Notes: generated from the letters alone by a model not told the origin. 64,000 nucleotides of DNA from Spirochaetia bacterium (GCA_963677595.1 OY782041.1:4128001-4192000); one strand, 5' to 3'; positions 11,588 to 34,121 are shown, counted from the stretch's first letter. Program-made: numbers and translations.

Positions 11588-11597
11588 TTCTTCGCTC

Positions 11598-13079
11598 CTA
11601 TTTCGCGGTGTTGACCCATACCGATCGCAGTTCCGTCACCGCCTCGATCGCGGCCGTCCCGTTATCCCGTCCGTATCCGCTCTCCTTGAACCCGCCGAAC
11701 GGCACGTTCGCCGAGAACATATCATAGGTGTTCACCCAGACGGCTCCGGCCTCAAGCGCAGAGGAGACTCTCATCGCCTTCCCCACGTTTTCAGTCCATA
11801 CCGCAGCGGCCAGCCCGTATCTGGTGTCATTGGCCCGCTCGATCACTTCCTCTTCGGTCTTGAAGGAATAGATGCATACCACCGGCCCGAAGATCTCCTC
11901 TTTCGAGATCACCGCATCATCCGGTACATCCGTGAACACGGTCGGCTCGATATAGTACCCGCCAGACGGCAGGTCCCCGCCGCTCATGGCGTTGCCGCCT
12001 GTTACCAGCGTTCCCTCGTCTTTCCCCGTCTCGATATACTCCATCACTGTCTTGTACTGGTGCTTATCGATGATCGGTCCCAGCACGGTTCCCTCATCCA
12101 TCGCGATCCCCGTCTTGGCTTCCTCGATCTTCTTCAGCAGTCCAGAGAGCACCTGCTCATAGATCCCTTCCTGGACATACAGACGGCTCCCGGCCACGCA
12201 GCTCTGCCCGGTATTCCCGAAAGCTGCCAGAAACGCTCCGTTGACCGCTTTCTCGATATCGGCATCGTTGAAGACGATGTTCGGCGCCTTGCTCCCCAGT
12301 TCGAGGGTCACCCGTTTCAGGTCCTCTGCCCCCGCCTTGATGATCGCCTTCCCTACCGGCGTTGATCCCGTGATCTGTACTTTCCGGATTCCCGGATGAT
12401 GTGCGATCGCGTTCCCGATCACACTTCCCCTTCCCGTCACGATGTTCAACACTCCTGCCGGCATCCCAGCCTCGCAAGCCAGTTCCCCCAGCCTGAGGAT
12501 ACATAATGACGCCACTGATGCCGGCTTGATGATCACGCAGTTCCCTGCTGCCAGCGCAGGGCCCGCCTTCTGAGAGAAGTGGATCAACGGGTAGTTCCAC
12601 GGCAGGATGATACCTATCGTACCAAGCGGGTGCCGCGTCGAATAGACGAACAGGTTCGGGATAGAAACAGGGATCGTTTCTCCGTTGATCCTGCTCGGGA
12701 TCCCTGAGGCATGCATCATATTCCGCGATGATACCGGTGCGTCGATCTTCATCGTATGGTTGATCGGTTTCCCCGTCTCCAGCGATTCGAGCTGCGCCAG
12801 CTCATCCTGATGTACTTCGATCAGCTGCGCAAACTTCCGAAGAACACTCTCACGGTACCCCGGTGCCGCTTTTGACCAACCCGGGAAAGCTGCTGCTGCA
12901 GCTGCTACAGCCGCATCGACATCAGACGCATCTGACGATGCGGTCAGCCCCAACCGGCTCCCGTCCGAGGCATTCCTCGCTGCCGCCTGTCCCCCGCTTA
13001 TCGCCGGGACGAAGGCCCCGCCTATCAGGTTCCCTTTCGCTTCACGTAAGAAACCCTCTACCTGTTCCAACATCTCCAT
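11598..13079 (-). CDS. NAD(P)-dependent aldehyde dehydrogenase
   Basis: PWNYP, TGSTPVG, LELGSK, GQSC catalytic Cys, EEIFGP, PFGGFKESG. Confidence 0.95.
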   Translation of the reverse strand: MEMLEQVEGFLREAKGNLIGGAFVPAISGGQAAARNASDGSRLGLTASSDASDVDAAVAAAAAAFPGWSKAAPGYRESVLRKFAQLIEVHQDELAQLESLETGKPINHTMKIDAPVSSRNMMHASGIPSRINGETIPVSIPNLFVYSTRHPLGTIGIILPWNYPLIHFSQKAGPALAAGNCVIIKPASVASLCILRLGELACEAGMPAGVLNIVTGRGSVIGNAIAHHPGIRKVQITGSTPVGKAIIKAGAEDLKRVTLELGSKAPNIVFNDADIEKAVNGAFLAAFGNTGQSCVAGSRLYVQEGIYEQVLSGLLKKIEEAKTGIAMDEGTVLGPIIDKHQYKTVMEYIETGKDEGTLVTGGNAMSGGDLPSGGYYIEPTVFTDVPDDAVISKEEIFGPVVCIYSFKTEEEVIERANDTRYGLAAAVWTENVGKAMRVSSALEAGAVWVNTYDMFSANVPFGGFKESGYGRDNGTAAIEAVTELRSVWVNTAK

Positions 13080-13122
13080 CTTCTCCACCTCGTTATCTCT
13101 ATATCGTCTCTTCCGTATTCTG

Positions 13123-14463
13123 TTATGAGAAGTCCAGCGTACTCAAATCATAGGATGGGTACACCACTTTCTTCAAATCCTTCATATGGGCTTTCGATGT
13201 GGCATCGATCCCGGTCTTGTTCTGTACTCCCACTGAGTCGCTGCACGGATCGAGCTCATGCCCCTGCGAGTTCGGAATCACGAAGACATCCTCCCGCGGG
13301 TTCACCCGGTTGGTCACGGCCCACCAGACCTCTGCTGCGTTGTAGATATCTGTATCCTCATCTACCACGATCACGTTCTTGATGTTCACATGGCTCGTCA
13401 TCGCAGCCATCGCTACGTTCTTCGGTTCCCCGTCATTGGACTTCCGCATCTGCACGATCGCCAGGAACCCTGACCCGTACGGAGGGATATGGACATCCAG
13501 CACATTCGCGGACACGTAGGTGCAGTGTTTTTCCAGCAGTGGTTCCCTCGGCAGCACGTTCCCCAGGTTGATATGCTCGAACGAGCCCCCGTTCATCGTC
13601 TGCCAGATCGCCCCATCGCGTCGGCAGATCGCTTTCAACTTGAAGACAGGGCTCTCCCAGAGTTTACCGTAGTGTCCCGTGAACTCAGCGAGCGGGCCCT
13701 CTTTTTCCAGCGTATCGGGGAGGATCTCCCCTTCAAGCACAAACTCGGCATGTGCCGGCACCATGATATCGCTCGTCTGGCACTTCACCACCTTGATGGG
13801 CTGCTTCCTGATCGCTGAGGCGATCTCCATCTCATCCCCGTCATACCGGAAACCTGCCGCGATCAGGATCGCCGGGTCCACGCCGACCGCTACGGCGATC
13901 GGCAGTCCCTCACCCTTCGCCCAGGCCTTCTTCATCATCTCCCGCAGATGCCGCCACTCATTGATCATGATCCCCGAACGGTTTGCACTCTTGATGTGCA
14001 TCCGCTGGAAGGAGACGTTCTGGCGCCCGGTCTCGGGGTCCTTTGAGATACATGCCCCCGCGGTGATGAACGGACCCCCGTCAAGGGGTGCATGGGTCGG
14101 TATCGGCAACTCCAGCAGGGAAGCTTCAGTCCCTGTCAGGATGTTCGCATGGAATTCGGCTGTCGCCACTTCTTTCGGCTTCACCGGGTGCTCATAGGCT
14201 TCCATCAGCACCTTGGAGATCTCGTTCGTCTCACATCCAAGCGCCAGGGCGATCTTCTTATGGCTTGAGAGCAGGCCGCCAACCACTTCTCCGGGTCTCC
14301 CCTTCAGGTTCTTGAAATGGACTGCCGGCAGGCCGCCCTTCTCGACCGTTGCCAGAATACTTCCCAGCTCCTGCTCGAGGTCGACCGGGCTCTCCAGCAG
14401 GTTCAATTCCCCCTGCTTTCTGAGCAGCTCCATATATGTTCGTAAATCGCTTACCACAGGCAT
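13123..14463 (-). CDS. ubiD: UbiD-family prFMN-dependent (de)carboxylase 1
   Basis: DGGPFITAG, QRMH, EGPLAEFTGHY, VVDED, LDP, GIDAT; AAGGGG RBS before ATG 14463. Family-level call, not necessarily ubiquinone synthesis. Confidence 0.92.
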   Translation of the reverse strand: MPVVSDLRTYMELLRKQGELNLLESPVDLEQELGSILATVEKGGLPAVHFKNLKGRPGEVVGGLLSSHKKIALALGCETNEISKVLMEAYEHPVKPKEVATAEFHANILTGTEASLLELPIPTHAPLDGGPFITAGACISKDPETGRQNVSFQRMHIKSANRSGIMINEWRHLREMMKKAWAKGEGLPIAVAVGVDPAILIAAGFRYDGDEMEIASAIRKQPIKVVKCQTSDIMVPAHAEFVLEGEILPDTLEKEGPLAEFTGHYGKLWESPVFKLKAICRRDGAIWQTMNGGSFEHINLGNVLPREPLLEKHCTYVSANVLDVHIPPYGSGFLAIVQMRKSNDGEPKNVAMAAMTSHVNIKNVIVVDEDTDIYNAAEVWWAVTNRVNPREDVFVIPNSQGHELDPCSDSVGVQNKTGIDATSKAHMKDLKKVVYPSYDLSTLDFS

Positions 14464-14548
14464 CCCCTTATTCGTTATTCTTATCATGACCATTCTACCA
14501 AGCTGAATCAATAGATGCAAAAAGAATCAACCAGCATGCAATACCTGG

Positions 14549-14923
14549 TTAGAAATCAGAGGGTTCCCGTACGATGGAGACAGCAGAGTAATCGACCAGC
14601 CCTCCGATCGCCACTGACGGCTTCTTCACCGTGATCCGGATCTGTTTCACCGGGTATGCGGCATTGATCTCCTCAGCAATCCGGTATGCCAGACGCTGCA
14701 GCAGCTTATGCTCCTCGGTAGTCACGACTTTCTTCACGATGTTGAACACCGATACATAGCTGAATCCCTTCTCCAGGTCATCAGTCAGGCACATCTCGGT
14801 CATGTCGAGTACGACTTCCGCATCCACGATGAACTTCTGTCCCAGCGTGTTCTCCTCGGCGAAATGTCCATGAGTTGCCCACAGCTGGATGTTCTTCACG
14901 ATCAACACATCTTCTTTTACCAT
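14549..14923 (-). CDS. folB: FolB/dihydroneopterin aldolase-like T-fold protein (E74->Q variant)
   Basis: HGHFAEE..GQKFIVD, SY, LLQRLA..IA, ITVKKP; GAGGTG RBS. Family-level call. Confidence 0.85.
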   Translation of the reverse strand: MVKEDVLIVKNIQLWATHGHFAEENTLGQKFIVDAEVVLDMTEMCLTDDLEKGFSYVSVFNIVKKVVTTEEHKLLQRLAYRIAEEINAAYPVKQIRITVKKPSVAIGGLVDYSAVSIVREPSDF

Positions 14924-14996
14924 TGTATTCACCTCTTATTCATAAAATCATTCACGGTCATCGTTGTCCTCTATGATAACCGCCTCCATCCTGCAC

Positions 14997-16862
14997 CTAA
15001 ACGAATAGCTTTTCGCCCTCCAGGGCAGCCTCTTTCGCTTCACGGTCGGCAGGGATGCCTCCATCCCAGCCCCGAAGCGCGTAATATTCCTCTTTCATCT
15101 CATCCAGAAAACTGAGGCAGGTCCTCGTCTCCCCGGTCTTGACGAGTCCCTTCAGCCGGTCCCCGTCGTATATATCGACGGTGATGGGTTCGGTCAGGAA
15201 CCGCTCAGGGAGCCTGTCCTCCTCCGGGGAGATACCTTCCCGGAGATTGAATAACCGCTCCATTTCGATGATGCCGTCACCAAGTGTCATTATCCCCTTT
15301 GCATCCATGGGCTCCTTGAAGATATGGCTCCAGGCTTCAGCCAAGTCGGACGGCATGATGGCATAACTCTCCGGACAGGCGAACTTGCAGATCCCCAAAG
15401 AGTCTGAAAGGGCATTGACCTCTTCCGAGATGATCTGCACGGCCCCCTTATGGGTAGGCGTGTGGGTTTCCAATGCGTCCGGCAGCAGTTCCGGGGCAAT
15501 AACCTCCATTGCCGCTACATTGTTCGCCACGTCAAGGGTCGGCAGGGCGTACAGCCCGTCACCGCCCCAGCTGGAGACCGCATTGTTCAGCCCGAAGGTC
15601 TGCGACTGCCTCGGTTCCTGGGCTGAGAGCTCCACCCCTTTCACCTGCATGGCATACGGCAGGCATTCAGGGTGTGCTTCACAGAACTTTCTTGTCCCGT
15701 TCCGAAGCATACCCCCGAGTCCCTTGTCCTCGATCATCTCTTCCCAGAGCCTGTCGATATCTTCAGGGTTCCCCCACTGAACTCTATAGTCCCTGGGAAG
15801 GATCCCCCGCTGTGAGCATTCCATGGCAAAGGCTACGATCCCACCGAAGCCAGACGGGTCGACGCCGTCTTTCAGGCAGCGGTCATAGAGGTCAACCAGG
15901 TATGCCAGGTCTCCGTTGCCGATCCTCGCCCCCAGGGTCCAGATCGGTTCGAGTTCCAAGCCTTCGGTATCCACCCGCTCGGTCCGCGTCTTCCTGATAC
16001 AACCGATATCGCAGCTCTCACAGCTCTTCGTCCCCACCGTTATATCCTTGATCGCTTCCGCGTTGAAGTTCTCGATCATCTCGAAGGAGGGCTGCTGATA
16101 GTTCCTCGTCGGCCAGTCCCCACGCAGATTCTTACTGCTGATGAACAGGGCTTTCCCCACATCCCGCAGCCTCACCGATGTCTGGTGGGTAGCTACCTTT
16201 TCCCTGACGACTTCAGATAACGACAGCCATTCCTTTTCTTGAATCCATGAAGGAGTGTACTCGCCTGGTTCGGCTACGATCCCCTTGAGCCTCTTACTGC
16301 CCATTATGGTCCCGCAGCCACGCAAGGTCATCGAGTAACCATCCGCGATTGCCGCCGCAAGCCCCGTCATGGCTTCTCCTGCTCGCCCGATCGCAAGGCT
16401 TGAACTGCCTGTGTAGACTTCTGCCATCCGTGCGGCAAATACCTGCGTATCAGTTCCCTGATAGGCTTCCGCATTCTTGAACCGGACTTCCTTCCCTGCA
16501 AGGTGCAGATAGACTGGAGTCTCTGATCTCCCCTGGATGATCACCGCGGCATACCCGAGACTGTGCAATACGATACCAAACCGTCCCCACGCCAGGCTGC
16601 TCCGGATCCCCCCGGTCAGGGAGGATTTCTCCGTGACATGCCACTGTACCGCTGAGGGCCAGCCGCTGCCCGCTAGCAGCCCTGTGGTGATGATCATCGG
16701 TGATGATCCTGCAAGGGGATCCTCGCCTGCGGTGGTATATTCATACAGCAGCCGGGCCCCGAGACCGCGACCGCCGAGATACTGCTTCAGTACTTTCTCC
16801 TCAAGTGTCCTCGTCCTGAAAGTTTGTGTGTGCAGGTCTATTTCCAGGCAACGGTTATTCAA
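14997..16862 (-). CDS. Aldehyde:ferredoxin oxidoreductase (AOR/WOR) family protein 2
   Basis: Paralog of 8338-10194; CESCDIGC, DSLGICKF, YYALRGWD; TTG start with GGAGGGAG RBS overlapping the upstream stop. Confidence 0.9.
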   Translation of the reverse strand: MNNRCLEIDLHTQTFRTRTLEEKVLKQYLGGRGLGARLLYEYTTAGEDPLAGSSPMIITTGLLAGSGWPSAVQWHVTEKSSLTGGIRSSLAWGRFGIVLHSLGYAAVIIQGRSETPVYLHLAGKEVRFKNAEAYQGTDTQVFAARMAEVYTGSSSLAIGRAGEAMTGLAAAIADGYSMTLRGCGTIMGSKRLKGIVAEPGEYTPSWIQEKEWLSLSEVVREKVATHQTSVRLRDVGKALFISSKNLRGDWPTRNYQQPSFEMIENFNAEAIKDITVGTKSCESCDIGCIRKTRTERVDTEGLELEPIWTLGARIGNGDLAYLVDLYDRCLKDGVDPSGFGGIVAFAMECSQRGILPRDYRVQWGNPEDIDRLWEEMIEDKGLGGMLRNGTRKFCEAHPECLPYAMQVKGVELSAQEPRQSQTFGLNNAVSSWGGDGLYALPTLDVANNVAAMEVIAPELLPDALETHTPTHKGAVQIISEEVNALSDSLGICKFACPESYAIMPSDLAEAWSHIFKEPMDAKGIMTLGDGIIEMERLFNLREGISPEEDRLPERFLTEPITVDIYDGDRLKGLVKTGETRTCLSFLDEMKEEYYALRGWDGGIPADREAKEAALEGEKLFV

Positions 16863-17496
16863 GGGAGCTCCCTCCCTGGGACCGTCCATGCTCAAGGAGT
16901 ATAGCTGCCTTTCCCAGGCACCTGCCGATGTCCTGCATGCTGGTGATGCCGACCTCGTCCTCCCGGGCACCTTTCAGTCCCCGGTTCTGGGTCCACATCT
17001 TACCGCCGGTGTAGTTGAAGTTCGCGCTCGACCCGCCGACCACGAAGATATTCCTCGCCAGGCACAGGTTGATCATGCAGTTGATCGTCAACTCCTGGCC
17101 TCCTGCCCTGCTGCCGCCGACGGCCAGGGCAGATGCAGGCTTACCGAACAATCCGGGCACCTTCTCTCGCATGGCCCGCATCTTATTGAACAGGAGCAGC
17201 ATCGAAGGGGTCGGGTTATAGGAATAGACCGGGGATGCCAGAATGTAGCCATCCGCATCGAAGAACTTCGTCAGCATCGCTGCGGTATCGTCTTCATGAA
17301 TACACTTCCCGGGGTTCCTGAGACAGTAGTTGCACCCGTTGCAGGGCTTGATGTCATAGTCCCTCAGTTTCATCACATCGGTCACGATATCTTCATGGAC
17401 CTCCGCTGCAGCTTCTAGGGACAGGCCTAGCGCATAGTCAGTGACCCCCTTGGTATAGCTTGAGGAGATCCCTAGGATCTTGATCTTCTTACTCAT
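16855..17496 (-). CDS. Iron-sulfur flavoprotein (ISF / multimeric flavodoxin family)
   Basis: CxxCxxCx6C (CNGCNYCLRNPGKC), ASPVY, GGQE. Confidence 0.88.
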   Translation of the reverse strand: MSKKIKILGISSSYTKGVTDYALGLSLEAAAEVHEDIVTDVMKLRDYDIKPCNGCNYCLRNPGKCIHEDDTAAMLTKFFDADGYILASPVYSYNPTPSMLLLFNKMRAMREKVPGLFGKPASALAVGGSRAGGQELTINCMINLCLARNIFVVGGSSANFNYTGGKMWTQNRGLKGAREDEVGITSMQDIGRCLGKAAILLEHGRSQGGSSLE

Positions 17497-17540
17497 TGTG
17501 CACCTCGCATTTATCTTGGAGATTGTTCTCAGGATTCGAA

Positions 17541-18131
17541 TCAGGTAGAGAACCCGTCTCTCAGGATCTCTTCGGCTTCATCGAGCCAGGACTCCCTCTG
17601 GGCCTGGCTGCTCATGAACACCCGGCAGAAATCTTTCTTTATGACCTTCCGGGCACCACAGTTCCCGAACACCACGGTATCCCAGAACCGACCGATGGGA
17701 TCTCCCAGCTCCGCCAATTCCTCCTCGGGACAGTCAGAGGTATTGAATACTGTAACCAATCTGGTACGCAGCAGTGGGACGAATCTCCCGTCCTCACCCC
17801 GTTTCCCGATGAACTTGAAGGCAACACCGGCACGTATGATACGGTCTACCCACCCTTTCAGCACAGCTGGAGGCTGGTGCCTCCAGTTGGGATGCACGAT
17901 GACGACGCCATCTGCGCGTTTGAGCTCATCGCAATGTTCCTTCATCTGTCCGACCGGTACATAGCTGTCTTCCAACTCCTCCATTGAGAGGAGCGGGTCG
18001 AAGCCCTCAGCATACAGGTCATGATAGAAGACTTCGTGACCCAAGCTCTCAAGTACGGATACTGCCCGCCCGGCTATCCCATGGTTCAGGCTCCCCTGTT
18101 TGGGATGCCCGACCAATACCATAATATTCAC
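17541..18131 (-). CDS. NAD(P)H-dependent oxidoreductase, flavodoxin-like fold (KefF/MdaB/AzoR-like)
   Basis: GHPKQGSLN, DLYAEGFDP, HPNW..PPAVLKGWVDR; AAGGA RBS before GTG. Confidence 0.85.
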   Translation of the reverse strand: MNIMVLVGHPKQGSLNHGIAGRAVSVLESLGHEVFYHDLYAEGFDPLLSMEELEDSYVPVGQMKEHCDELKRADGVVIVHPNWRHQPPAVLKGWVDRIIRAGVAFKFIGKRGEDGRFVPLLRTRLVTVFNTSDCPEEELAELGDPIGRFWDTVVFGNCGARKVIKKDFCRVFMSSQAQRESWLDEAEEILRDGFST

Positions 18132-18204
18132 AACACGTTCCTTATAGCTTTCCAGGTGCCAAGTGATCAAAACACATCCTGTACGCAATCAGCCCTGAAG
18201 TATG

Positions 18205-18237
18205 AACAGCGGAAACTGCCAAGGCGTTTCCGCTGTT
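18205..18237. terminator. Stem-loop (terminator or mRNA processing/stability element)
   Basis: 12-bp perfect inverted repeat AACAGCGGAAAC...GTTTCCGCTGTT; no clear U-tract. Confidence 0.45.
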
Positions 18238-18391
18238 AGTATGTTCATGAACCGTTACTCAGCCAGTACCTTCTGCCTGGGAGACAGTCAGGTTGACACC
18301 CCTAAGCGGTCAGCACTTCCTACAGATACCGGTGATAACGGCAGTCAAGGTCTGTTCCTTCATCGATCGTTCTCTCAATACCTGCAATGGA

Positions 18392-19294
18392 TCAGGATTT
18401 GATCGCCCCGGCCATCACACCGTTCACGAATGCCTTCTGGGCCGTGAGAAACACAATCAGCGGCGGCAGCATCAGCAGTACCGCACCGGCAGCCTGTACC
18501 GTGATATACTCGCCATACCCGCCGGCAGAGTTTGCCAGGACAGCAGTCAGCGGCCTGATTGAAGAATCAGGGATGATGATCAAGGCTCGCAGGAGATCAT
18601 TCCAGACCCACAGGAAATCGAAGATAGCAAGGGATGCGATTGCAGGTCCTGAAAGCGGCAGTACGATGTTGAAGAGCATATGCCTCGTCTTGGCTCCGTC
18701 TATTTTGGCAGCATTCAGCAGCTCCCTGGGGATCTGTATCATGAAACTGCCCAGGAGGAAGACTCCGAACGGGACTGTCGATGCGATATAACTCATCCAT
18801 ACACCGGGATAGGTATTGACCAGATGGGTCATCTTCAGGATTACCAGCGTCGGGTACAGGGTAATCTCTGGCGGTATGATGATAAGGCCTGTAACGAAGG
18901 CGAACAGCATCAGGCGGCCAGGGAAATCTGTCAGGGTGAACACATATGCAGCTGATGCACAGACCAGTACAACCCCCAAGGTCGTTGGGAAGGTGATCAG
19001 CACACTGTTGATCAGTCCCGTTGAGAGGTTCTGCATCCCCAGCATGGCCTTATAGTTCGACAGGTCGAATTTCGGGTTTATGAACACAGTCCACCATCCG
19101 GATCCTGTCGCATCGGTGAACGGCCTGAACGAGTTTATCACTAGCCCGATGAGGGGGATGAGCCATACCAGCACGACGAAGAGGACTACGATCCTGATGA
19201 TAAGCACAGACGGCTTCAGTGCCGGTCTCTTCACGGGATACACCTGCGCGGTCCCCGCGGTCATATTACTATTTTGGAGAGTTCTCTGATTCAT
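18392..19294 (-). CDS. Carbohydrate (CUT1) ABC permease, alpha-glucoside AglG-like
   Basis: NSFRP, SGWWT, EAA-like loop 'ELLNAAKIDGA', FLWVWNDLL. Confidence 0.88.
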   Translation of the reverse strand: MNQRTLQNSNMTAGTAQVYPVKRPALKPSVLIIRIVVLFVVLVWLIPLIGLVINSFRPFTDATGSGWWTVFINPKFDLSNYKAMLGMQNLSTGLINSVLITFPTTLGVVLVCASAAYVFTLTDFPGRLMLFAFVTGLIIIPPEITLYPTLVILKMTHLVNTYPGVWMSYIASTVPFGVFLLGSFMIQIPRELLNAAKIDGAKTRHMLFNIVLPLSGPAIASLAIFDFLWVWNDLLRALIIIPDSSIRPLTAVLANSAGGYGEYITVQAAGAVLLMLPPLIVFLTAQKAFVNGVMAGAIKS

Positions 19295-20232
19295 TTTTCC
19301 TCCCCTATCTTTCTGGTTATACTGAACACGGTAACGATGATCAGACTCATGATAGTCACGATCGCTGCTCCGTATTGCGGTTTCATGAAACGGAACGTCT
19401 GCTCGAAAAACAGGAGCGCCATCGTCCGGCTCATGCCGGCAGGACCGCCCTCGGTCGTCACATAGACTACATCGAACACCTTCAATACTTGGACGAGCTG
19501 GGTCACGAGCAAGAATGATATCGGCTGCCTGATCGAAGGCACCGTTATATGCCAGAACCGCTGCCAGCTGGTAGTCCCGTCCACTTTTCCTGCATCAAGC
19601 AGGTCCTGGCTCACACCCTTCAGGGCTGCCGAGAGGATGATCACGGACATACCGCACTGGCTCCAGACCCACGCAGCGATCTGTGAGGGTATGACCAGTT
19701 CGGGGTCTCCCAGCCATGAGTAGGATCCATGCAGCACCGCATTGAGGAACCCGATCTTCGGGCTCGGTGCATACATGAACATCCAGATGATCCCGATGAC
19801 CGTTCCGGAGATGACCATGGGCAGGAAGAAGGTACTCCTGACCAGGGCCTGAAGCCTCCTGTTCCGTTTGTCTACGAACGACAGGTTCACATTATCTGCA
19901 ACGAGGGCAACGATCATCCCTATGATGATAACCGCCGGCACAGCCACGATTATCCACTTCAGACTGACAACAAGGGCACCGGTCGGGAATGATGCCGGGA
20001 AATCCTCAAGATTCAGGAATTTATTGTCAGAAAATAATTTGACGAAGTTCTCAAACCCGACATACCCTTTCAGCTTAAAACCTGTTGGTTCAGCGACACT
20101 CAACCTCAATGTATAGAGGACAGGTACCAGCTGAAAGGCTAACACTAAGATCAATGCCGGGGCGGCAAGAAGCAGCCCCGACAGGTTTGAACTACGTCTT
20201 TGTTTTCTTTTAAACAAGTAACGTAATTTCAC
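19291..20232 (-). CDS. Carbohydrate (CUT1) ABC permease, AglF-like
   Basis: FFLPMVIS, DLLDAGKVDG, LKVFD...GGP. Confidence 0.88.
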   Translation of the reverse strand: MKLRYLFKRKQRRSSNLSGLLLAAPALILVLAFQLVPVLYTLRLSVAEPTGFKLKGYVGFENFVKLFSDNKFLNLEDFPASFPTGALVVSLKWIIVAVPAVIIIGMIVALVADNVNLSFVDKRNRRLQALVRSTFFLPMVISGTVIGIIWMFMYAPSPKIGFLNAVLHGSYSWLGDPELVIPSQIAAWVWSQCGMSVIILSAALKGVSQDLLDAGKVDGTTSWQRFWHITVPSIRQPISFLLVTQLVQVLKVFDVVYVTTEGGPAGMSRTMALLFFEQTFRFMKPQYGAAIVTIMSLIIVTVFSITRKIGEEK

Positions 20233-20235
20233 TAT

Positions 20236-21510
20236 CTACATATCTCCATAGTTCTTCTGGAATTCAGCAAGAGAAGCTTCGATACCAGCAGGATTAAGGA
20301 TCGCTGACTGGATCACTTCCATCAGAGCCCCTCTCTTCTCGTTTGCAAGCATAGCCCCGTTTGAAGGTGCGATCTGTGCTGTAGGTGATGAAAGGTACTC
20401 AGCTGATCGTGCGGTAAGACCTGTGTAGAGTGAAGGGCTTACATTGTAGTTAGCTACAGTATACCCTGATGGTGCGAATAATGCCTGACCTTCAGCGCTG
20501 ATCAGGTATTCCATCAGCTGGGTTGCCTCAGAACTGTCTGAGAACTGTACTGCGACATCCGCTGCAGCGATGACAGCACCCTTTCCTGCGTCTGATCCTG
20601 GAGGGAATACGATGAAGTCGATAGTCTCGCCTTCAACGAGATTCTCATTGATAGCACTCTTAGCAATACCTGCTACCCAGCCGCCGCCGATAACGAACTT
20701 TGCATCTGCATCGGTACCGAAGACTCGGGAGATACCGCCTACAAGATCTGTACCCATAGCGCCTTCTCCGCCGCCTGCAACATAGGACCCACCGTAGTAA
20801 TCAGCGATCTTCTCGAATGCTGCCACGACCTTCGGGTCAGTCCAGGGAGTCTGATTCGTCATGAGCTTAACCCACTCGTCAACTCCGTAAGAACCGAGGA
20901 ACATATCCTCAATGAGACCGGTAAGGGTCCAGGATGTCTTCGCGATACTTGCAACAGGTTTCTCCCCTGCAGCTACCAGTTTATCAGCATAATCGGTGAA
21001 GTCATCATACATCCAGGTACTTGGGTCCCCGTCGATCTTAGAGGGATCGAACCAGAACAGGTTCGAGACACTTGCACGTGTCGGGATAGCCATGATCTCA
21101 CCATCGAAGGTGAACTGGTCTAACCAGCCCTGGCTGAAACTGGACTCGATCTCGCTCTTCATACTGTTCAAGCTGACAATAGCATCCTGAGCTACGAGTT
21201 CCTTGAGTCCATTAGCAACCGGAAGGATCGCCAGGTCAGGAGTCTCATCGGCTGCAAGCCTGGGTCCAAGGACCTTGATCACATCCTCAGCCGCCTCGTA
21301 TCGAACTTCGATACCGGTCTTCTCTGTGAATCCATCAAGCACTACCTGGAACGCTTCCTGTTCAGAAGCACTCCACGGCCCCATGATATCCAACACGACA
21401 GGTTCTGAACTTGCTTCCTTCTGACCGGCTGCAAAAACCATTGAACCAGACAATACCAACATGAAAACTGCAAACAACACACTGCATACATTCTTTCTCA
21501 GCACTTTCAT
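20236..21510 (-). CDS. Carbohydrate ABC solute-binding protein (AglE-like)
   Basis: Signal peptide 'VFAAGQKE'; 'GPWS..E...F..F.EKTGI.V.Y', PDLAILP; GGGAGG RBS. Confidence 0.85.
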   Translation of the reverse strand: MKVLRKNVCSVLFAVFMLVLSGSMVFAAGQKEASSEPVVLDIMGPWSASEQEAFQVVLDGFTEKTGIEVRYEAAEDVIKVLGPRLAADETPDLAILPVANGLKELVAQDAIVSLNSMKSEIESSFSQGWLDQFTFDGEIMAIPTRASVSNLFWFDPSKIDGDPSTWMYDDFTDYADKLVAAGEKPVASIAKTSWTLTGLIEDMFLGSYGVDEWVKLMTNQTPWTDPKVVAAFEKIADYYGGSYVAGGGEGAMGTDLVGGISRVFGTDADAKFVIGGGWVAGIAKSAINENLVEGETIDFIVFPPGSDAGKGAVIAAADVAVQFSDSSEATQLMEYLISAEGQALFAPSGYTVANYNVSPSLYTGLTARSAEYLSSPTAQIAPSNGAMLANEKRGALMEVIQSAILNPAGIEASLAEFQKNYGDM

Positions 21511-21626
21511 CTCTAGCCTCCCATTCTTATTGCGCAAGGTCTTGCCGTACTCGGCGAATCCCCTGCTTTGATTAACATGTATTTAACAACCTGTATCTCG
21601 AATGTGCACCTACTCGATACGGGTAA

Positions 21627-22646
21627 TTAACAGATTTTTGTAGAGTCCCTCACGACCAGCTTCGTTTCCAAAACCGTATGGAACGGGCCGGAAGCAGGGT
21701 CATCTATCAATTGGAGCAGCTGCGTGACGGCAGCTTCCGCGATCTCTTCTATAGGCTGATGGATCGTCGTCAACTGTGGGACGACCATCGTCGCATAGTA
21801 GATGTCATCGAAGCCTATGATCGAGACATCCTCGGGGACCCGCTTCCCTGACTGCCACACAGCACTGATCGCACCCATGGCAGTCTCATCAGTCTGGCAG
21901 AATATAGCCGTCATGTCCTTATTCACTGCCAGGAGATGCTTTGCTCCTTCATAGCCTCCATTGAACGATGCTCCACCAGTTTGCCCGCAAAGGTAAATCA
22001 GGTCCTCCTGGTTAGTCATCCCATTGGCAGACATAACATCCTCATAAGCCTTGAATCGCCTTATCGAATAATTGTAATCAGACTGCAGCAGGATGCATCC
22101 TACAGATGTATGTCCAAGAGTTGTGAGATACTTGACGGCATTCTCAGTACTCTTATAGTCATCAATCGCTACATATGAGATCTCAGGCTCCAGTTCTACC
22201 TGTCCTGGGTGGATGATCATGAACGGTATGTTGTTCTCCTTCAGGTAGGAGATCAGTTCTTCATTGATACCGGCTATGGTATCAAGGAGCAGACCTTCAA
22301 TCTGCTTCCCGCCGTATGCAGCCTTGACCAGGTCGATGACATGTTCATCAAGCTTGAACAGGCTCAAACGGTAATTGATCGACTGGCAGGTCGCCAGCAG
22401 GGCTTCCATCAGCGTTGCATAGAAGGCTGTCTGTATTCCCCAACCCATGACAATACCGATCGAAAGGGCCCGGCCCCTGGAGAAGATGGTCGCTACCTGA
22501 TTCGGGACGAAGTTAAGCTCATCAATGACTTTCTGTACTTTTGTCTTCGTTGTCGTGGAGACATTCACTTCCCCATTGACGACACGTGAAACGGTCTTAA
22601 GTGATACTCCAGCCCTGCTGGCAACATCCCGCATAGTAACAGCCAA
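21627..22646 (-). CDS. LacI-family transcriptional regulator
   Basis: TMRDVASRAGVSLKTVSRVVN HTH; VPEDVSIIGFDD; LTTIHQP. Confidence 0.95.
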   Translation of the reverse strand: MAVTMRDVASRAGVSLKTVSRVVNGEVNVSTTTKTKVQKVIDELNFVPNQVATIFSRGRALSIGIVMGWGIQTAFYATLMEALLATCQSINYRLSLFKLDEHVIDLVKAAYGGKQIEGLLLDTIAGINEELISYLKENNIPFMIIHPGQVELEPEISYVAIDDYKSTENAVKYLTTLGHTSVGCILLQSDYNYSIRRFKAYEDVMSANGMTNQEDLIYLCGQTGGASFNGGYEGAKHLLAVNKDMTAIFCQTDETAMGAISAVWQSGKRVPEDVSIIGFDDIYYATMVVPQLTTIHQPIEEIAEAAVTQLLQLIDDPASGPFHTVLETKLVVRDSTKIC

Positions 22647-22666
22647 AACGCATCCTCCTCTCTGAC

Positions 22667-22726
22667 TGACACCGGTGTCAATCAGTCTGTAATCAGATGG
22701 TAAGTCATATTGACACCGGTGTCAAT
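22667..22726. promoter_or_regulatory. Two LacI-type operators overlapping a predicted sigma70 promoter of the lacI/ABC operon
   Basis: Palindrome TGACACCGGTGTCA at 22667-22680 and ATTGACACCGGTGTCAAT at 22709-22726; minus-strand TTGACA(22725-22720)-17 nt-TACCAT(22702-22697). Confidence 0.8.
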
Positions 22727-22974
22727 GTTTTTTTTAATAACCCGATGAAATATATTATATTTCCCACATATATGTAGTTTTTATACGTTTCCCAGATAGT
22801 TATATTCTGCGTAAAAATGTGCTTAACTTCTTTTCAACACATAATTTATAAATACTTTCAAGAATCAAGCTGAAATGGAAGAAAAATCACTAAAAATATT
22901 ATCGCACCATAGCAGAACCTACTTAAATGTAGCTTTTGCATGAGAGTAATCAGGCAAATCGCGATACTCGGCAT

Positions 22975-24345
22975 CTAGGTTTTCGAGATTCCCATCTGCA
23001 TTCGATGCAATTCTTCAATTTTCCGGTAGTTCCTCAGCAGTGCGATCGTTGTGATCACGATCGCCAACCCATCCGCTGCAGGGACTGCAGCCCAGACACC
23101 GGTCAGGCCGAACTGGTAAGGCAGTACGGTCAGCAGCGGTACCAGACAGATGAACTGGCGAAGCATACTCAAGATGAGGGCCTTCTTGCCCTGGTCAGTG
23201 GCCTGGAAGAATGTGATCCCCAGGATGTTCAGACCCAGCAGGGGAAGCATGATGACATAGATCCTCAAGCCTCGTACTGCAACTCCCATGGTAGGTGATG
23301 ATGGGTTGATGAACATGCCCATGAAGAACTGCGGGAAGATCTGAAGGGCGAGGAAGATGAGCGTGGAGAAGCCTACAGCCCATAGGATCCCGAGCTTCAG
23401 GGTCCTGTTCACGCGGTCGTGCTTATCTGCCCCGAAGTTATACCCGATGATAGGCTGCATCCCCTGCTGCAGCCCCATCAGGGGAAGGAAGAAGAGGGTG
23501 AACAGGCCATTGATCGCCCCCATCGAGGTAATGGCTTCTGTCCCGCCGTAGATTGAGAGTCTCTGGTTCAGGAAGCCGAGGGCTATGCTGTTCCCCATGG
23601 TCCCGATGAAGGTCGCCATCCCGGTGATCATGATCTGCTTCACGATCACGGCATGGATGATGAAGTCGGAGATCGTGAGTTCGAGATGGCTCTTTCCCCG
23701 AAGATAGAAGGGTATCAGTATGAAGAATCCGGACATCTGGCCGATCGCCGTAGCTGCTGCCGCACCCATGACTCCCCATCCGAACACGATGATGAACAGC
23801 GCATCGAGAACAATGTTCACAACTGCAGAAGCCAGCATCGCCACCATCGGCAGGTGGGCGTTTCCCTCAGTCCGTATGGTATGGTTGAAGATGAAGGCGA
23901 TCATATTAAAGATGAACCCGCCAAGGATGATCTTCATGTAGATATTCGCCTGGCTCAGGATACTCTCATCGGCACCGAAGAGCTGCAGGATGTTGTCCAG
24001 CTGCCAGAAGAGTACGGCGACCAGAGCGATCACGATGATGATCCCGATGCTGATACCGTTGGCAAAATAGCGTCCGGCCTTCTTCACATCCTTCCTGCCG
24101 AACTGGATGGCCATGCAGGCAGACACACCGCCTGCGAGCAGCCCGCCGAGGGCGAAGAGGATCATCATCACGGGGAACGCTACCGTCAGGGCAGCAAGTG
24201 CGCCCTCCCCTACGAACCTCCCGATGAAGATCCTGTCCACCACGTTGTAGACTGCGTTCACCACCATGGCGAAGATCGAAGGGAATGAGAATGCCCAAAG
24301 GAGCTTACCGACCGGCTTCGTCCCCAGTTCTTCCTGTCTTTTCAT
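22975..24345 (-). CDS. MATE family efflux transporter (MepA-like)
   Basis: YNVVDRIFIG, IRTEGN, NIVLDALFI, GAAAAT, QPIIGYNFGA. Confidence 0.92.
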   Translation of the reverse strand: MKRQEELGTKPVGKLLWAFSFPSIFAMVVNAVYNVVDRIFIGRFVGEGALAALTVAFPVMMILFALGGLLAGGVSACMAIQFGRKDVKKAGRYFANGISIGIIIVIALVAVLFWQLDNILQLFGADESILSQANIYMKIILGGFIFNMIAFIFNHTIRTEGNAHLPMVAMLASAVVNIVLDALFIIVFGWGVMGAAAATAIGQMSGFFILIPFYLRGKSHLELTISDFIIHAVIVKQIMITGMATFIGTMGNSIALGFLNQRLSIYGGTEAITSMGAINGLFTLFFLPLMGLQQGMQPIIGYNFGADKHDRVNRTLKLGILWAVGFSTLIFLALQIFPQFFMGMFINPSSPTMGVAVRGLRIYVIMLPLLGLNILGITFFQATDQGKKALILSMLRQFICLVPLLTVLPYQFGLTGVWAAVPAADGLAIVITTIALLRNYRKIEELHRMQMGISKT

Positions 24346-24587
24346 AATTAACACCTATCTCTTTATCTTATGAGGATTTCTAACTAGCTAAAGAAGCGGT
24401 GTGTCTGTAGGGTTCTTTTTTAACATTCAGCGGATCTCCCGTCTTGGAGGGAGAACGATCTGTCTCTGTTTGTAGATCACGTACAGATACAATCTGCTGT
24501 CCCTGCAGAATTTCACGGCAGGAACAGTCATATATGTATCAGATTATGGAAGTTTAGCCAAGGCTAGAGTTGTATATACAACATAAT

Positions 24588-24956
24588 TTATGCAGTCAGG
24601 GTGAACCCGACATACTCAACATTCGAACCTGGGATGGCAGGATACGGCTCCTTCACGGTGACGGTGACCTGCTCGATGGGGGTGCCAGAAGCACCCCTGA
24701 CCTCATCAGCGATACGCTGGGCGACCCTCTGGATGGTCTTGTAATGCTCTTGGGTGATCACCTGCTGCGTGATCTGAAAGAGGTCCGTATAGGTAAGGCC
24801 GCTGGAGAGCTGGTCTTCGGCGAACTGGTTGGACATATCGAGGACCACCTCGATATCGATGATGAACTTGGTCCCCATGACGTTCTGCTCATGGGTGAGC
24901 CCGTGGTTCCCCCAAAAGATCATGCCGTTAGATTTCAATATATCCAGGTCTCTCAT
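24588..24956 (-). CDS. FolB-like T-fold protein, type B, copy 1
   Basis: HGLTHEQ..GTKFIID, LTY, TIQRVA..IA, VTVKEP.PAIPG. Confidence 0.8.
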   Translation of the reverse strand: MRDLDILKSNGMIFWGNHGLTHEQNVMGTKFIIDIEVVLDMSNQFAEDQLSSGLTYTDLFQITQQVITQEHYKTIQRVAQRIADEVRGASGTPIEQVTVTVKEPYPAIPGSNVEYVGFTLTA

Positions 24957-25384
24957 ATGCTCCCCTCTTCTCCACCAGGGAAGGTCCGTACCAGCGTCAC
25001 CCCGCAGCCCTCGTCATCGGGGAAGAAACCTCCCCCTCCGGGAACGGTACTGCAGTCACGATAGAATGAGCAGAGGGCCTTCCGTGCCGAGACACTGACC
25101 CTGCTTACGGCAGGGTACTCTTCCCTGATCTGCTCGATGATCCGCAATGCGAGCTTCTGCATGAGGTTGAACCGTTCCTTGGTCGTGATCCTCTCTATGA
25201 TCGCGAAGATCTCTGGATAATTCACGATCCCGTTGATGGAATCCTCATCGCAGGCTGCGCTCATGTCGGCGCTGACTTCGGCATCGATGACGAATCGCTG
25301 GCCTTGCTTGATCTGTTCCGGTGTCGCCCCGTGATAGGCATAGAACACCGCTCCCTGTACCAGTATGGTATATTGTGAACTCAT
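24953..25384 (-). CDS. FolB-like T-fold protein, type A, copy 1
   Basis: FYAYHGATPEQ..GQRFVID, VNY, FNLMQKLA, SARK; Cys/Gly-rich insertion. Confidence 0.82.
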   Translation of the reverse strand: MSSQYTILVQGAVFYAYHGATPEQIKQGQRFVIDAEVSADMSAACDEDSINGIVNYPEIFAIIERITTKERFNLMQKLALRIIEQIREEYPAVSRVSVSARKALCSFYRDCSTVPGGGGFFPDDEGCGVTLVRTFPGGEEGSI

Positions 25385-25413
25385 AGTCCCTCCAATCCTG
25401 TCGGATACCGGTG

Positions 25414-25608
25414 CTAATCCGGAAACTTGTCCGAAGCCAGGGATCCCCCGATCGCCCAGTCTGATTTCTTATAGTCACTGAACGAGATGATGACGCTCTC
25501 CCTAGGAACTTTCGCGATCTCCACCACGCTTTCAGTGATCTCGTTGGTGAGCTCCCGTTTCTGTTCCACGGTCCGGCCTTCCCATAACATGACATTGATG
25601 AACGGCAT
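25414..25608 (-). CDS. 4-oxalocrotonate tautomerase family protein, copy 1
   Basis: Pro-1, EGRT.EQK, W..GG; 64 aa; AAGGAG RBS. Confidence 0.9.
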   Translation of the reverse strand: MPFINVMLWEGRTVEQKRELTNEITESVVEIAKVPRESVIISFSDYKKSDWAIGGSLASDKFPD

Positions 25609-25635
25609 ATGTGACTTCTCCTTCGTAACGTATAT

Positions 25636-25667
25636 CTGTCCCTGCAGCCTCGTATCTGCAGGGACAG
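25636..25667. repeat. Intergenic 12-bp inverted repeat between the duplicated cassettes
   Basis: CTGTCCCTGCAG-cctcgtat-CTGCAGGGACAG; related hairpin with the same CTGTCCCTGC arm at ~24497-24527. Confidence 0.7.
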
Positions 25668-25681
25668 GGTAAGTCAGTACA

Positions 25682-26050
25682 TTATGTGGTCAGGGTGAAC
25701 CCGATAAACTCCACATTCGAGCCAGGTATAGCAGGATACGGTTCCTTCACAGTGACAGTGACCTGCTCTATGGGTGTGCTGGAAGCACCCCTGACCTCAT
25801 CAGAGATACGCTGGGCAACCTTCTGGATGGTCTTGTAGTGCTCCTGGGTGATCACCTGCTGCGTGATCTGGAAGAGGTCCGTATACGTAAGACCACTGGA
25901 GAGCTTGTCTTCGGCGAACTGGTTGGACATATCGAGGACGACCTCGATATCAACGATGAATTTGGTTCCCATGACGTTCTGCTCATGGGTGAGTCCGTGG
26001 TTCCCCCAGAAGATCATGCCGTTCGATTTCAATATATCCATATCTTTCAT
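25682..26050 (-). CDS. FolB-like T-fold protein, type B, copy 2
   Basis: 10 aa differences over 122 aa versus 24588-24956; GGAGG RBS favours ATG 26050. Confidence 0.8.
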   Translation of the reverse strand: MKDMDILKSNGMIFWGNHGLTHEQNVMGTKFIVDIEVVLDMSNQFAEDKLSSGLTYTDLFQITQQVITQEHYKTIQKVAQRISDEVRGASSTPIEQVTVTVKEPYPAIPGSNVEFIGFTLTT

Positions 26051-26065
26051 GTGTTCCATCCTCCC

Positions 26066-26479
26066 CTAGTTCTCGAAATTCCGTAGTAATGTGACACCGC
26101 TTCCCCCGTCATCGGAGATGAAGCCGCCGCCGCCGGGAATAGTCTTGCAGTCCCGGTAATAGGGGCACAATGACTTCCTGGCCGAGATCTTGACACTGCT
26201 CACATCCGGGAACTCTGCCTTGACCTGCTCGATGATCCGCAATGCGAGTTTCTGCATGAGGTTGAACCGCTCATTGGTCGTGATCTTCTCGACGATGTCG
26301 TAGATTGCCGGGTAGTTCACCAGCCCCTCTACGGAATCTTCCTCACAGGCCTTACTCATGTCAGCACTGACTTCAGCGTCGATGATGAACCGCTGGCCCT
26401 GCTTGATCTGTTCCGGTGTCGCCCCATGGTAGGCATAGAACACCGCACCCTGCACTAATACTGTATGCTTCATACTCAT
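26066..26479 (-). CDS. FolB-like T-fold protein, type A, copy 2
   Basis: Paralog of 24953-25384 (~73% identical by manual count). Confidence 0.82.
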   Translation of the reverse strand: MSMKHTVLVQGAVFYAYHGATPEQIKQGQRFIIDAEVSADMSKACEEDSVEGLVNYPAIYDIVEKITTNERFNLMQKLALRIIEQVKAEFPDVSSVKISARKSLCPYYRDCKTIPGGGGFISDDGGSGVTLLRNFEN

Positions 26480-26545: not shown

Positions 26546-26743
26546 TTATGAATGCATGATCTTGTCGGAGGCGAGATAGCCCCCCTCTGCCCAATCGGAT
26601 CTCCGGTAATCGGTGAACGCGATGATCACGCTCTCCCTGGGTACTTTCGCGATCTTCACCACACTATCGGTGATCGCTGTAGTGAGTTCCCGTTTCTGCT
26701 CCACGGTCCTTCCTTCCCATAACATGACTTCTACAAATGGCAT
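26546..26743 (-). CDS. 4-oxalocrotonate tautomerase family protein, copy 2
   Basis: Pro-1, EGRTVEQK; paralog of 25414-25608; AAAGGAG RBS. Confidence 0.9.
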   Translation of the reverse strand: MPFVEVMLWEGRTVEQKRELTTAITDSVVKIAKVPRESVIIAFTDYRRSDWAEGGYLASDKIMHS

Positions 26744-27125: not shown

Positions 27126-28460
27126 TTACTGCTTCAGGAACGCATCCAGATCCACTGCAGGATAGGTGACTCGCTTGTAATCATCCTTGATCTTGAGGTC
27201 GATGGTCGCATCGATCGCGAACTTCGTCTGCATCCCCTCCTCATCAGTTGTTGGATCGTTCTCCATGCCCTGGGCATAGGGGATGGTGATGATGTCCTTC
27301 TTCGCATCCACCCTGGTAGACATGGCCCAGAGGATGTCGCTCGGCATGTAGATGTTCACATCGGGATCGACGATAACGGCGATCTTGATGTTCACATGCG
27401 TCATGAGCGCTGCAAGGGCAACATTCTTCGGTTCCCCCGAATTGGTCTTGTTCAGGGCGATGACCGCCATGAAGCCGCCGGTATAGGGGGTAAGATGAAC
27501 GTCCGTTACATTGGGTGAGACGTGAGTGACCATCCGTTTCAGCATGGGTTCTCGAGAAAGCACGTTGCCGACATTCACATGTTCGTTGGATGCAGGGACG
27601 ATGGTCTGGTAGATCGGGTCATTCCGGTATGAGATGGAAGTCACCTCGATGACCGGCATATCTCTATGCTCGCCGTAGTGCCCGGTGAACTCAGCCAGGG
27701 GACCTTCGTCCTCCCACTCCTTCACCTTCACATAGCCTTCGACGAGGATCTCGGTATCGGCAGGCACATTGATACCGACAGAGCCGGCAGCGACTTTCAG
27801 GGGTGCCCCGTTCAGTGCCCCTGCCAACATGGCCTCATCCTCATCGATACGGAACCCTGTGGACATCTCGACAGCCGGGTCCACGCCGATAGCGATCGCT
27901 ATGGGCATATTCTCCCCTTTTGCCTCATATTTCCGGAAGAACTGGAAGATATGCCGCCATTCGTTCATCATGAGACCCAGTTTCCTCGGCCCTTTCACCT
28001 GCAGGCGGTTGAACGAGAAGTTCTGCCGGCCTGTCTCGGGGTCCTTGGAGACGATGATGCCCCCCGTGATATAGGGGCCGGCATCGCCGGGATTATGATA
28101 GGGGATGGGCAGCTGTTCCCGGAGGTTGATATCATCACCAGTGATGCGGTTCTCCAAAAACGGAGGGTTCTCAACAAGTTCCGGCTCGATCAGGTTCCCC
28201 AGGGCGGCATCCACCTTCTGGTTGATCTCCGGTTCTCTACAGTCGAGTGCCAATGCGATACGCTTCATCGTACCAAGGACACCCCCGATCACCGGGATCC
28301 CCGAGGGGTGGTCGGTATTGGTGAACAAGCCTGCAGGCCTGCTCTCCTTCTCCATGGCATCCTCGATCGCCGCGAACTCGAAGTCGAGCTTCACACGTTT
28401 ATCTATCTCGAGCAATTGCCCGTTCTGTCTCAGTTTCTCCAGGAATGATCTCAATTCCAT
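27126..28460 (-). CDS. ubiD: UbiD-family prFMN-dependent (de)carboxylase 2
   Basis: DAGPYITGG, NRLQ, EGPLAEFTGHYG, VDPDV, KFAIDAT; paralog of 13123-14463. Family-level call. Confidence 0.92.
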   Translation of the reverse strand: MELRSFLEKLRQNGQLLEIDKRVKLDFEFAAIEDAMEKESRPAGLFTNTDHPSGIPVIGGVLGTMKRIALALDCREPEINQKVDAALGNLIEPELVENPPFLENRITGDDINLREQLPIPYHNPGDAGPYITGGIIVSKDPETGRQNFSFNRLQVKGPRKLGLMMNEWRHIFQFFRKYEAKGENMPIAIAIGVDPAVEMSTGFRIDEDEAMLAGALNGAPLKVAAGSVGINVPADTEILVEGYVKVKEWEDEGPLAEFTGHYGEHRDMPVIEVTSISYRNDPIYQTIVPASNEHVNVGNVLSREPMLKRMVTHVSPNVTDVHLTPYTGGFMAVIALNKTNSGEPKNVALAALMTHVNIKIAVIVDPDVNIYMPSDILWAMSTRVDAKKDIITIPYAQGMENDPTTDEEGMQTKFAIDATIDLKIKDDYKRVTYPAVDLDAFLKQ

Positions 28461-29326: not shown

Positions 29327-29399
29327 AGTTCTCTCCTCTTCAACACGTCGCCATGTGTTGTGATCCGTTGTCATCGTATGCTCTCATACGTAGATCGTA

Positions 29400-30236: not shown

Positions 30237-30336
30237 AAAGCGTATCACCTCATATGTTGGATTTCAGTAGTGGGGCCAGACCCGTCATGTGTCCAGCCCC
30301 ATGCTGGATGTTTATCATCTCACGTTCTCTGCGTCC

Positions 30337-34102: not shown

Positions 34103-34121
34103 GCAGGAACTGGGAGGTCCT

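Follow-up and report, generated by a model that had tools for sequence, protein, structure and literature searches.

A 64,000-nucleotide stretch of a Spirochaetia genome (GCA_963677595.1, OY782041.1:4128001-4192000), hereafter the window, encodes five FolB-fold proteins on its minus strand. They are the only FolB domains found in this genome, and all five carry glutamine in place of the pterin-anchoring glutamate of dihydroneopterin aldolase (DHNA; Glu74 in Staphylococcus aureus). We propose, from sequence evidence, that the clade defined by Gln74, whose genes stand among catabolic clusters in anaerobes, comprises catabolic side-chain retro-aldolases for dihydrolumazines in an anaerobic pteridine pathway, with one type (A) acting as a homo-oligomer and two others (C and B) as an alternating heteromer, a proposal whose chances we judge to be about even. 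A first-pass annotation of the window had interpreted the five proteins as a T-fold subfamily acting on lumazines or other dioxo heterocycles. That interpretation is partly supported here, as the Gln74 subfamily appears to lie outside folate synthesis and to co-occur with a CodA-like deaminase.

The glutamine anchor and the clade that carries it

In DHNA, Glu22, Tyr54, Glu74 and Lys100 are the conserved binding and catalytic residues, and the Glu74 and Tyr54 surrounding the product come from different chains (PMC11328599). Read at these four positions, the window proteins fall into three types: E-Y-Q-K in A (14549), Q-Y-Q-E in B (24588 and 25682) and Q-Y-Q-K in C (24953 and 26066). Type A has the Glu22, Tyr54 and Lys100 of folate DHNA, C lacks Glu22, and B lacks both Glu22 and the catalytic Lys100, the latter replaced by Glu in both B proteins. 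Gln falls on Glu74 of S. aureus DHNA (1DHN) in alignments of type A and of the type C family profile, the stretch from Glu22 to Glu74 being gapless in both, which rules out a register shift that would place a neighboring Glu on Glu22 or Glu74; for type B, the assignment was obtained from a five-way alignment of the window proteins. These results bear out the first-pass reading of Gln74 in all five proteins and of Glu22 in 14549 only, with Gln in the other four, and the motifs it quoted (LLQRLA, TIQRVA/TIQKVA and LMQKLA) are exact in the window sequence. It overlooked the loss of Lys100 in B, however, and its treatment of the five as one kind of enzyme does not survive the division into three types. 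Together with the Gln, positions 51 and 53 beside the Tyr are altered in A and B, Thr51 (Thr/Ala/Ser) becoming Gly and Asp/Asn53 becoming Ser or Thr.

The open reading frames of all five were confirmed (Table 1), and their products exceed the Pfam FolB cut-off (PF02152; 70-99 against 31.8 bits). Of the two families against which profile comparison had been suggested, FolB thus matches throughout and FolX does not, the window proteins scoring 23-34 bits, where matched, against a cut-off of 152 (NF008418). The NCBIfam folB equivalog cut-off (TIGR00525, 72.15) is passed by A (95.9) and C (74.6 and 77) and missed by B (67.8 and 66). Judged by sequence, the window proteins belong to the FolB structural family and depart from folate DHNA at Glu74 and in pathway. 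The sequence family, and presumably the fold, is common to them and to the DHNAs of S. aureus (1DHN), B. cereus type (5F3M) and plants (1SQL), whose sites are formed by two neighboring chains (PMC11328599), as is predicted for C and B, and type A keeps the remaining catalytic set. Unlike these DHNAs, the clade has Gln74 and altered positions 51 and 53, lacks folP/folK neighbors, occurs in genomes devoid of folate synthesis, and includes two-gene or fused forms with a split Tyr/Lys set.

The protein searches turned up 22 further proteins for type A, four for type B and 11 for type C, including some window paralogs. Gln74 is kept in 20 of the 21 other aligned A homologs (Asn in the remaining one), in 12/12 rows of the C alignment and in 5/5 rows of the B alignment, and nearly all type A homologs also keep Glu22, Tyr54 and Lys100. 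Since all 175 FolB domains typed outside the Gln set, at loci from genome and metagenome scans, have Glu74, the conservation of Gln across A, B and C homologs is not a matter of chance. A quick tree was built from 110 rows, namely 52 with Gln or Asn, the Glu74 protein of locus L002 and 57 further Glu rows, of which 55 were a random draw. In it, the Gln rows occupy one side of a branch with a Shimodaira-Hasegawa-like approximate likelihood ratio test value of 88, below the starred level, in agreement with the distinct subfamily put forward in the first-pass annotation. L002 is nested within this clade, inside which Glu reappears twice (L002 and L222).

Members of the Gln74 clade are rare, and their distribution is patchy. 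Additional searches brought in Gln loci from six more genomes and extra copies from three. In the class of one carrier (G408), the clade was found in 6/210 genomes; in that of another (G412, Bacillota), none of 398 other genomes gave a match at E 1e-33 (2 not scored). None of five family relatives of the present genome has a FolB, and among 400 other genomes sampled from its phylum 72 carry a single FolB, all Glu in the 27 of 29 retrieved loci that were typed. The C alignment, run against metagenomes, picked up 80 loci at up to 41% identity, none with Gln74, a plasmid search gave 20 distant matches with none closer than 38%, and a search of the ESM Atlas gave generic FolB clusters only. No description of a Gln-anchored or catabolic FolB clade was found in the largely open-access literature searched. 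G412 carries six clade domains at four loci (L007, L224, L225 and L226) and no FolK, and a type A protein (P0006) is encoded on a 7.5 kb contig labeled as an archaeal metagenome-assembled genome (MAG), which may be a binning error.

In the present genome (one contig, 95.4% complete, 6.3% contamination), no folE, folE2, folK, DHPS (folP) or PTPS was found, which rules out a role of its FolB-fold proteins in a folate pathway; its single pterin-binding match lies in a 1210-amino-acid frame, a size that would suit methionine synthase. The separation extends to the clade. folP/folK genes stand near 0/12 Gln loci compared with 130/175 Glu loci (0/11 and 69/92, respectively, for loci of at least 8 kb), and within ~10 kb they were found at none of a larger set of 24 Gln74 loci. 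FolK was not found in 11 of the 18 Gln74 genomes searched, and five of the seven that bear it keep a separate Glu74 FolB. One small MAG (G407) has folE and adjacent folP-folK genes with no folB between them, its sole FolB being an in-clade protein with Glu74, and yields no PTPS or CodA-like match; this single case fits a need for Glu with 2-amino pterins. The database label dihydroneopterin aldolase would wrongly credit folate synthesis to genomes that give no sign of such a pathway.

A duplicated unit with a predicted split site

Types C and B are encoded in a unit that is present twice, each C-B pair being preceded by a tautomerase-family gene of 64-65 codons, and the two copies are 77% identical in DNA. 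The B copies differ at 26 synonymous and 10 amino-acid-changing codons, the C copies at 37 of each kind; this divergence and the many synonymous changes rule out an assembly artefact as the source of the duplicate. The first-pass statement that the catalytic Tyr is kept applies to all five window proteins and fails as a feature of the C family, in whose alignment the Tyr54 position holds Cys in 8/12 rows, Tyr in 3/12 and His in 1/12. Lys100 is kept in 12/12 of these rows, and an invariant Cys lies in a new inserted loop. B homologs keep the Tyr and have Glu or Gln at the Lys position. Complementary loss of Tyr and Lys is seen in three C-B gene pairs and in three fused two-domain proteins, in which domain 1 has the Tyr and domain 2, while carrying Glu22, Gln74 and Lys, shows Phe, Val or Ile at the Tyr position. 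The fused proteins (L203, L215 and L216, plus a degenerate one, L219) adjoin aldehyde:ferredoxin oxidoreductase (AOR) or DUF6506 genes and BMP transporters.

Complex prediction of C2B2 gave an alternating ring with a score of 0.82, compared with 0.00 for the best of three controls; the mark applied to such scores was reached by 116/157 solved pairs and 2/215 mismatched pairs. At least 88% of contacts agree between runs, with a partner predicted local distance difference test value (pLDDT) of at least 85. In the model, C contacts both B chains, one through its first strand, which lies against the last strand of that chain, and the second through its last strand, which lies against that chain's first strand; Gln76 of C points toward the other subunit type. 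The monomer model of type C (pLDDT 74) shows four strands together with the helices expected, the inserted loop being of low confidence. With Tyr supplied by the neighboring chain, each pair in an alternating C/B ring would have one complete site: B is predicted to supply Tyr to the C pocket, to which C contributes Gln and Lys, and B, devoid of the catalytic Lys, likely acts only together with C. If true, this split would be a clear case of subunit specialization in a T-fold ring. Two known FolB-fold systems offer partial parallels, FolX epimerase as a paralog with a changed reaction and fungal DHNA (Fol1/Fas) as a two-domain protein whose domains cooperate, both being biosynthetic, unlike the role proposed here.

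Gene neighborhood and a candidate breakdown route

The window cluster (Table 1) holds four CxxCxxC-motif flavoproteins, which we take to be iron-sulfur flavoproteins (Isf-like). A compact cluster in an Oceanispirochaeta MAG, comprising a deaminase, molybdenum hydroxylases, two UbiDs, UbiX, aldehyde dehydrogenase (ALDH), alcohol dehydrogenase (ADH), tautomerase, C and B, maps onto window positions 11-46 kb with 44-88% identity (regulators lower); the CodA-like gene, C, B and tautomerase are shared, and type A is missing. The two deaminase-like genes stand 8 and 18 kb away; because the compact cluster includes a counterpart of the distant CodA-like deaminase, the latter can be assigned to the same unit. 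A Bacillota locus (L226) has UbiD, C, B, flavoprotein and tautomerase in series.

Table 1 Features of the window cluster
Feature	Position	Strand	Remarks
Aldehyde:ferredoxin oxidoreductase 1	8338..10215	-	
Iron alcohol dehydrogenase (10463-11587) and aldehyde dehydrogenase (11598-13088)	10463..13088	-	78-82% identical in related cluster
UbiD-family decarboxylase 1	13123..14520	-	Directly downstream of type A; closest solved relative 6H6V
FolB-fold type A	14549..14932	-	Glu27, Tyr59, Gln79, Lys104 correspond to S. aureus E22, Y54, E74, K100; complete catalytic set with Gln anchor
Aldehyde:ferredoxin oxidoreductase 2	14997..16970	-	Upstream of type A
CxxCxxC-motif flavoprotein, Isf-like (16855-17496), and flavodoxin-fold NAD(P)H oxidoreductase (17541-18188)	16855..18188	-	
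FolB-fold type B, copy 1	24588..24956	-	Glu103 at Lys100 position
FolB-fold type C, copy 1	24953..25384	-	4-base overlap with type B, copy 1
Tautomerase-family gene, copy 1	25414..25608	-	PF01361, 57.4 bits
FolB-fold type B, copy 2	25682..26059	-	Gln27, Tyr59, Gln79, Glu106 (catalytic Lys lost); predicted Tyr-donor subunit
FolB-fold type C, copy 2	26066..26479	-	Gln24, Tyr56, Gln76, Lys102, then inserted loop with C-family-invariant Cys
4-Oxalocrotonate-tautomerase-family gene, copy 2	26546..26743	-	PF01361, 51.8 bits; Pro after start Met; overlooked in first-pass annotation
UbiD-family decarboxylase 2	27126..28460	-	Upstream of duplicated unit
ABC transporter with NMT1/THI5-type binding protein	28520..31368	-	
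Two Isf-like flavoproteins (31446-32066 and 32583-33251)	31446..33251	- and +, respectively	
RpiR regulator and UbiX flavin prenyltransferase	33248..34691	+	UbiX: UbiD cofactor supply
Amidohydrolase	34688..36091	-	AtzA / 8-oxoguanine deaminase group
Isf-like flavoprotein, molybdenum hydroxylase large subunit (XdhA-like), GntR regulator	36120..39854	-	
BMP-family ABC transporter	39910..44591	-	
CodA-like deaminase	44675..45919	+	37% to Sinorhizobium lumazine-type cluster deaminase; kept in related cluster

As to the ligand, a Gln that donates to a carbonyl and accepts from a ring NH would predict an O=C-NH-C=O edge, a match that is not specific to lumazine, this edge being common to xanthine, urate, flavins and uracils. 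Colloc'h (2000) is said to have placed the urate oxidase Gln at the position equivalent to Glu74. Urate oxidase is a T-fold protein (PMC2229834) whose Gln228, with Arg176, holds urate, xanthine and diaminouracil (PMC2490695), and the Glu/Gln anchor argument of the first-pass annotation fits both this residue and DHNA Glu74 (PMC11328599). The likeness lies in the T-fold and in a Gln that anchors oxo-substituted heterocycles; urate oxidase differs in being oxygen-dependent, and the searches of the PDB reported no sequence match between it and the window proteins. With Glu22, Tyr54 and Lys100 intact, type A would most simply perform FolB chemistry on a 2-oxo-7,8-dihydropteridine.

In the route we propose, the transporters would take up a pterin whose polyol side chain is of the neopterin, monapterin or biopterin type, a deaminase would convert its 2-amino group to 2-oxo, and an Isf-like flavoprotein would provide the 7,8-dihydro form required by aldol chemistry. 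The FolB-fold enzyme would cleave C1'-C2', leaving 6-hydroxymethyl-dihydrolumazine and a small aldehyde. The former would be oxidized to the 6-carboxylate and/or the latter cleared by ADH, ALDH and AOR, and UbiD would decarboxylate the 6-carboxylate. ADH, ALDH/AOR and two UbiDs would fit such a series from hydroxymethyl to carboxylate to decarboxylation, and lumazine-6-carboxylate is a candidate intermediate (PMC9513972). Molybdenum hydroxylase, a ring-contraction step and the second UbiD (acting on xanthine-8-carboxylate) would lead to xanthine, as in Cupriavidus sp. LA-1, and purine-degradation-like genes upstream would complete the breakdown.

The Cupriavidus precedent, with which the gene-level account of pteridine breakdown begins only in 2025, concerns an aerobe and rings without side chains (PMC12391406). 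Its cluster I takes pterins to xanthine through a deaminase, a molybdenum hydroxylase (LuDH), the isomerase DHLI and a UbiD (XCDC/UbiX), alphaproteobacterial clusters using a CDA-like deaminase (PMC12391406). At the level of gene families, the window shares the combination of a deaminase-like gene, molybdenum hydroxylase and UbiD/UbiX, and its FolB-fold proteins likely serve an analogous function; it differs in two UbiDs of a separate group and in anaerobe-type AOR and Isf-like genes. A term search of that paper returned neither aldolase nor folB (PMC12391406). Test queries were taken from a Sinorhizobium plasmid cluster with the published lumazine-pathway layout. Its deaminase is the one matched by the CodA-like protein, and its XOR-family hydroxylase matches the window gene at 34%, with 10 family matches in the genome. 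The UbiDs of Gln loci form a group of their own, which has a His and Arg motif in common with both references, and the top plasmid UbiD matches that were checked presumably lie in furan (hmf) degradation clusters. The other deaminase-like gene, the amidohydrolase at 34688, is closer to AtzA and 8-oxoguanine deaminase than to 2PAJ. The reductive 2,8-dioxopurine pathway (XdhD/YgfK/SsnA/HyuA/YgeW/YgeY/YgeX; PMC12990295) has similar families upstream of the window and at L003, L005 and L010, a likeness of family content alone, and its accessible text names no FolB-fold protein, UbiD or tautomerase. Outside the window, about 20 kb upstream of its first base, the island goes on with one OTCase-like gene, three further molybdenum hydroxylases and two each of M20 hydrolases, SsnA-like amidohydrolases and PreA-like genes, an assemblage resembling reductive purine breakdown.

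Weighing the readings

Beyond the window, 24 Gln loci were surveyed for marker genes within ~10 kb, several of the loci ending at contig edges. An Isf-like gene is present at 16/24 (8 within 1.5 kb) and a BMP transporter at 14/24. A CodA-like match occurs in 10/12 Gln74 genomes (8 at 38% or more) compared with 2/28 control genomes (31-34%), which are Bacillota chosen from Glu loci. Several observations weigh against the retro-aldolase proposal. The control genomes differ in lifestyle, which is a confounder, and related genomes are not independent. A full-length deaminase-like gene lies within ~10 kb at only 6/24 Gln loci, UbiD is found at 3/24, and 3/24 have no marker gene at all. Neither window deaminase reaches a named-family cut-off, and the CodA-like protein scores similarly against a solved cytosine deaminase and the lumazine-cluster enzyme. 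The genome yielded no DHLI ortholog, the best match (21%) lying 620 kb away and the other subunit having none, and the window UbiDs are 34-37% identical to the HmfF type compared with 30% to the Sinorhizobium lumazine-cluster UbiD. One genome (G406) in which no folE was found has folP-folK without folB, its sole FolB being a Gln74 protein, and one B homolog (L222) has Glu74, situated in a pocket devoid of Lys. B and C have Gln for Glu22 and so may not be aldolases, and the C2B2 score may reflect likeness to solved FolB rings, the controls having included no homo-oligomer.

A different ligand is the alternative we take most seriously, though we consider it improbable on balance: Gln would read the imide edge of another heterocycle (a xanthine- or urate-type purine, 8-ribityl-lumazine, a flavin or deazaflavin fragment, or a substituted uracil), and the chemistry, above all that of C and B, would be isomerization, hydration or ring contraction rather than aldol cleavage. 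The range of ligands held by Gln228 of urate oxidase (PMC2490695) and the reductive-urate-pathway-like genes upstream (OTCase-like, M20, SsnA-like and molybdenum hydroxylases; PMC12990295) are consistent with this, as are the loss of Glu22 in B and C, the invariant Cys in the new loop of C, and FGGY kinases, zinc alcohol dehydrogenases and acetoin-dehydrogenase-like E1 pairs at other Gln loci. The window UbiDs, moreover, are closest to 6H6V, which we take, with the list in Fig. 4 of PMC12391406, to be HmfF. Against it, type A keeps the Glu22, Tyr54 and Lys100 that act on the C6 side chain, and the Glu74 member of G407 suggests that the clade pocket still fits a pteridine. A term search of a riboflavin-degradation preprint (10.64898/2026.02.13.705874) gave no occurrence of folB, neopterin or UbiD, and the riboflavin-to-lumichrome fin cluster, compared by terms and not by sequence, was unmatched. 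Neither that preprint nor PMC13197243 decides between the candidate ligands.

Somewhat less probable still are catabolic or salvage aldolases working on ordinary 2-amino pterins, with Gln74 merely weakening or broadening binding and any deamination coming later. G406 suits this explanation, as do the 3/24 loci without catabolic markers and the 18/24 without a full-length deaminase nearby, the passing of the folB equivalog cut-off by A and C, and the two reversions to Glu within the clade (L002 and L222); it sits poorly with Glu74 in all 175 typed domains outside the Gln set and a Gln held across three diverged types, with the five genomes that keep both kinds, and with a clade member that has Glu in the sole genome containing folE, folP and folK and no other FolB. 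A non-catalytic role for B and C, and perhaps for A, in which they would bind or scaffold and so sequester a pteridine intermediate on behalf of the flavoprotein, tautomerase or UbiD, is quite improbable: it would account for the missing Glu22 (B and C), Lys100 (B) and Tyr54 (most C), yet these losses are complementary rather than random and leave one full Tyr/Lys site per pair, and the duplicated B copies differ mainly at synonymous codons (26 compared with 10).

Beyond the retro-aldolase proposal itself, we tentatively suggest a wider and doubtful extension, in which the clade would mark an undescribed anaerobic pathway for both the stripping and the degradation of pteridines, C and B would form a split-site T-fold enzyme with new chemistry (for example the DHLI ring step, together with tautomerases here and cyclohydrolase-like pairs elsewhere), and a single Glu/Gln change would decide whether the fold serves folate synthesis or lumazine breakdown. 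Methenyl-H4MPT cyclohydrolase-like genes (PF02289) stand in pairs, a full gene with a degenerate one, near 8/24 Gln74 loci compared with 0/175 Glu loci, for instance at L004:7522-9337, L005:12014-13765, L224:17725-19433 and L261:7252-9020, and none occurs in the present genome; a ring-opening or ring-closing step is possible for them. The family is tractable: its proteins are small, the prediction turns on one residue, a member with Glu occurs naturally, and some carriers are in culture (Moorella-group isolates, L004 and L006).

No riboswitch or other small RNA family was detected near the window genes at gathering thresholds. At the end of the type A run stands a GH3 beta-glycosidase gene (window 5979-8303), whose product could free glycoside-bound pteridines, and a sugar ABC transporter accompanied by a LacI regulator (18392-22646), for which a link to pteridine glycosides is possible, lies just upstream of that run; both are absent from the Oceanispirochaeta cluster as retrieved. 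Elsewhere, at L001:9258-13727, cbiZ and a corrinoid/iron-type ABC transporter flank a Gln74 FolB, and catabolic markers are absent. The window also contains a lone 5S rRNA gene (47734-47847), with the rRNA operon (59389-64000) ~11.5 kb away.

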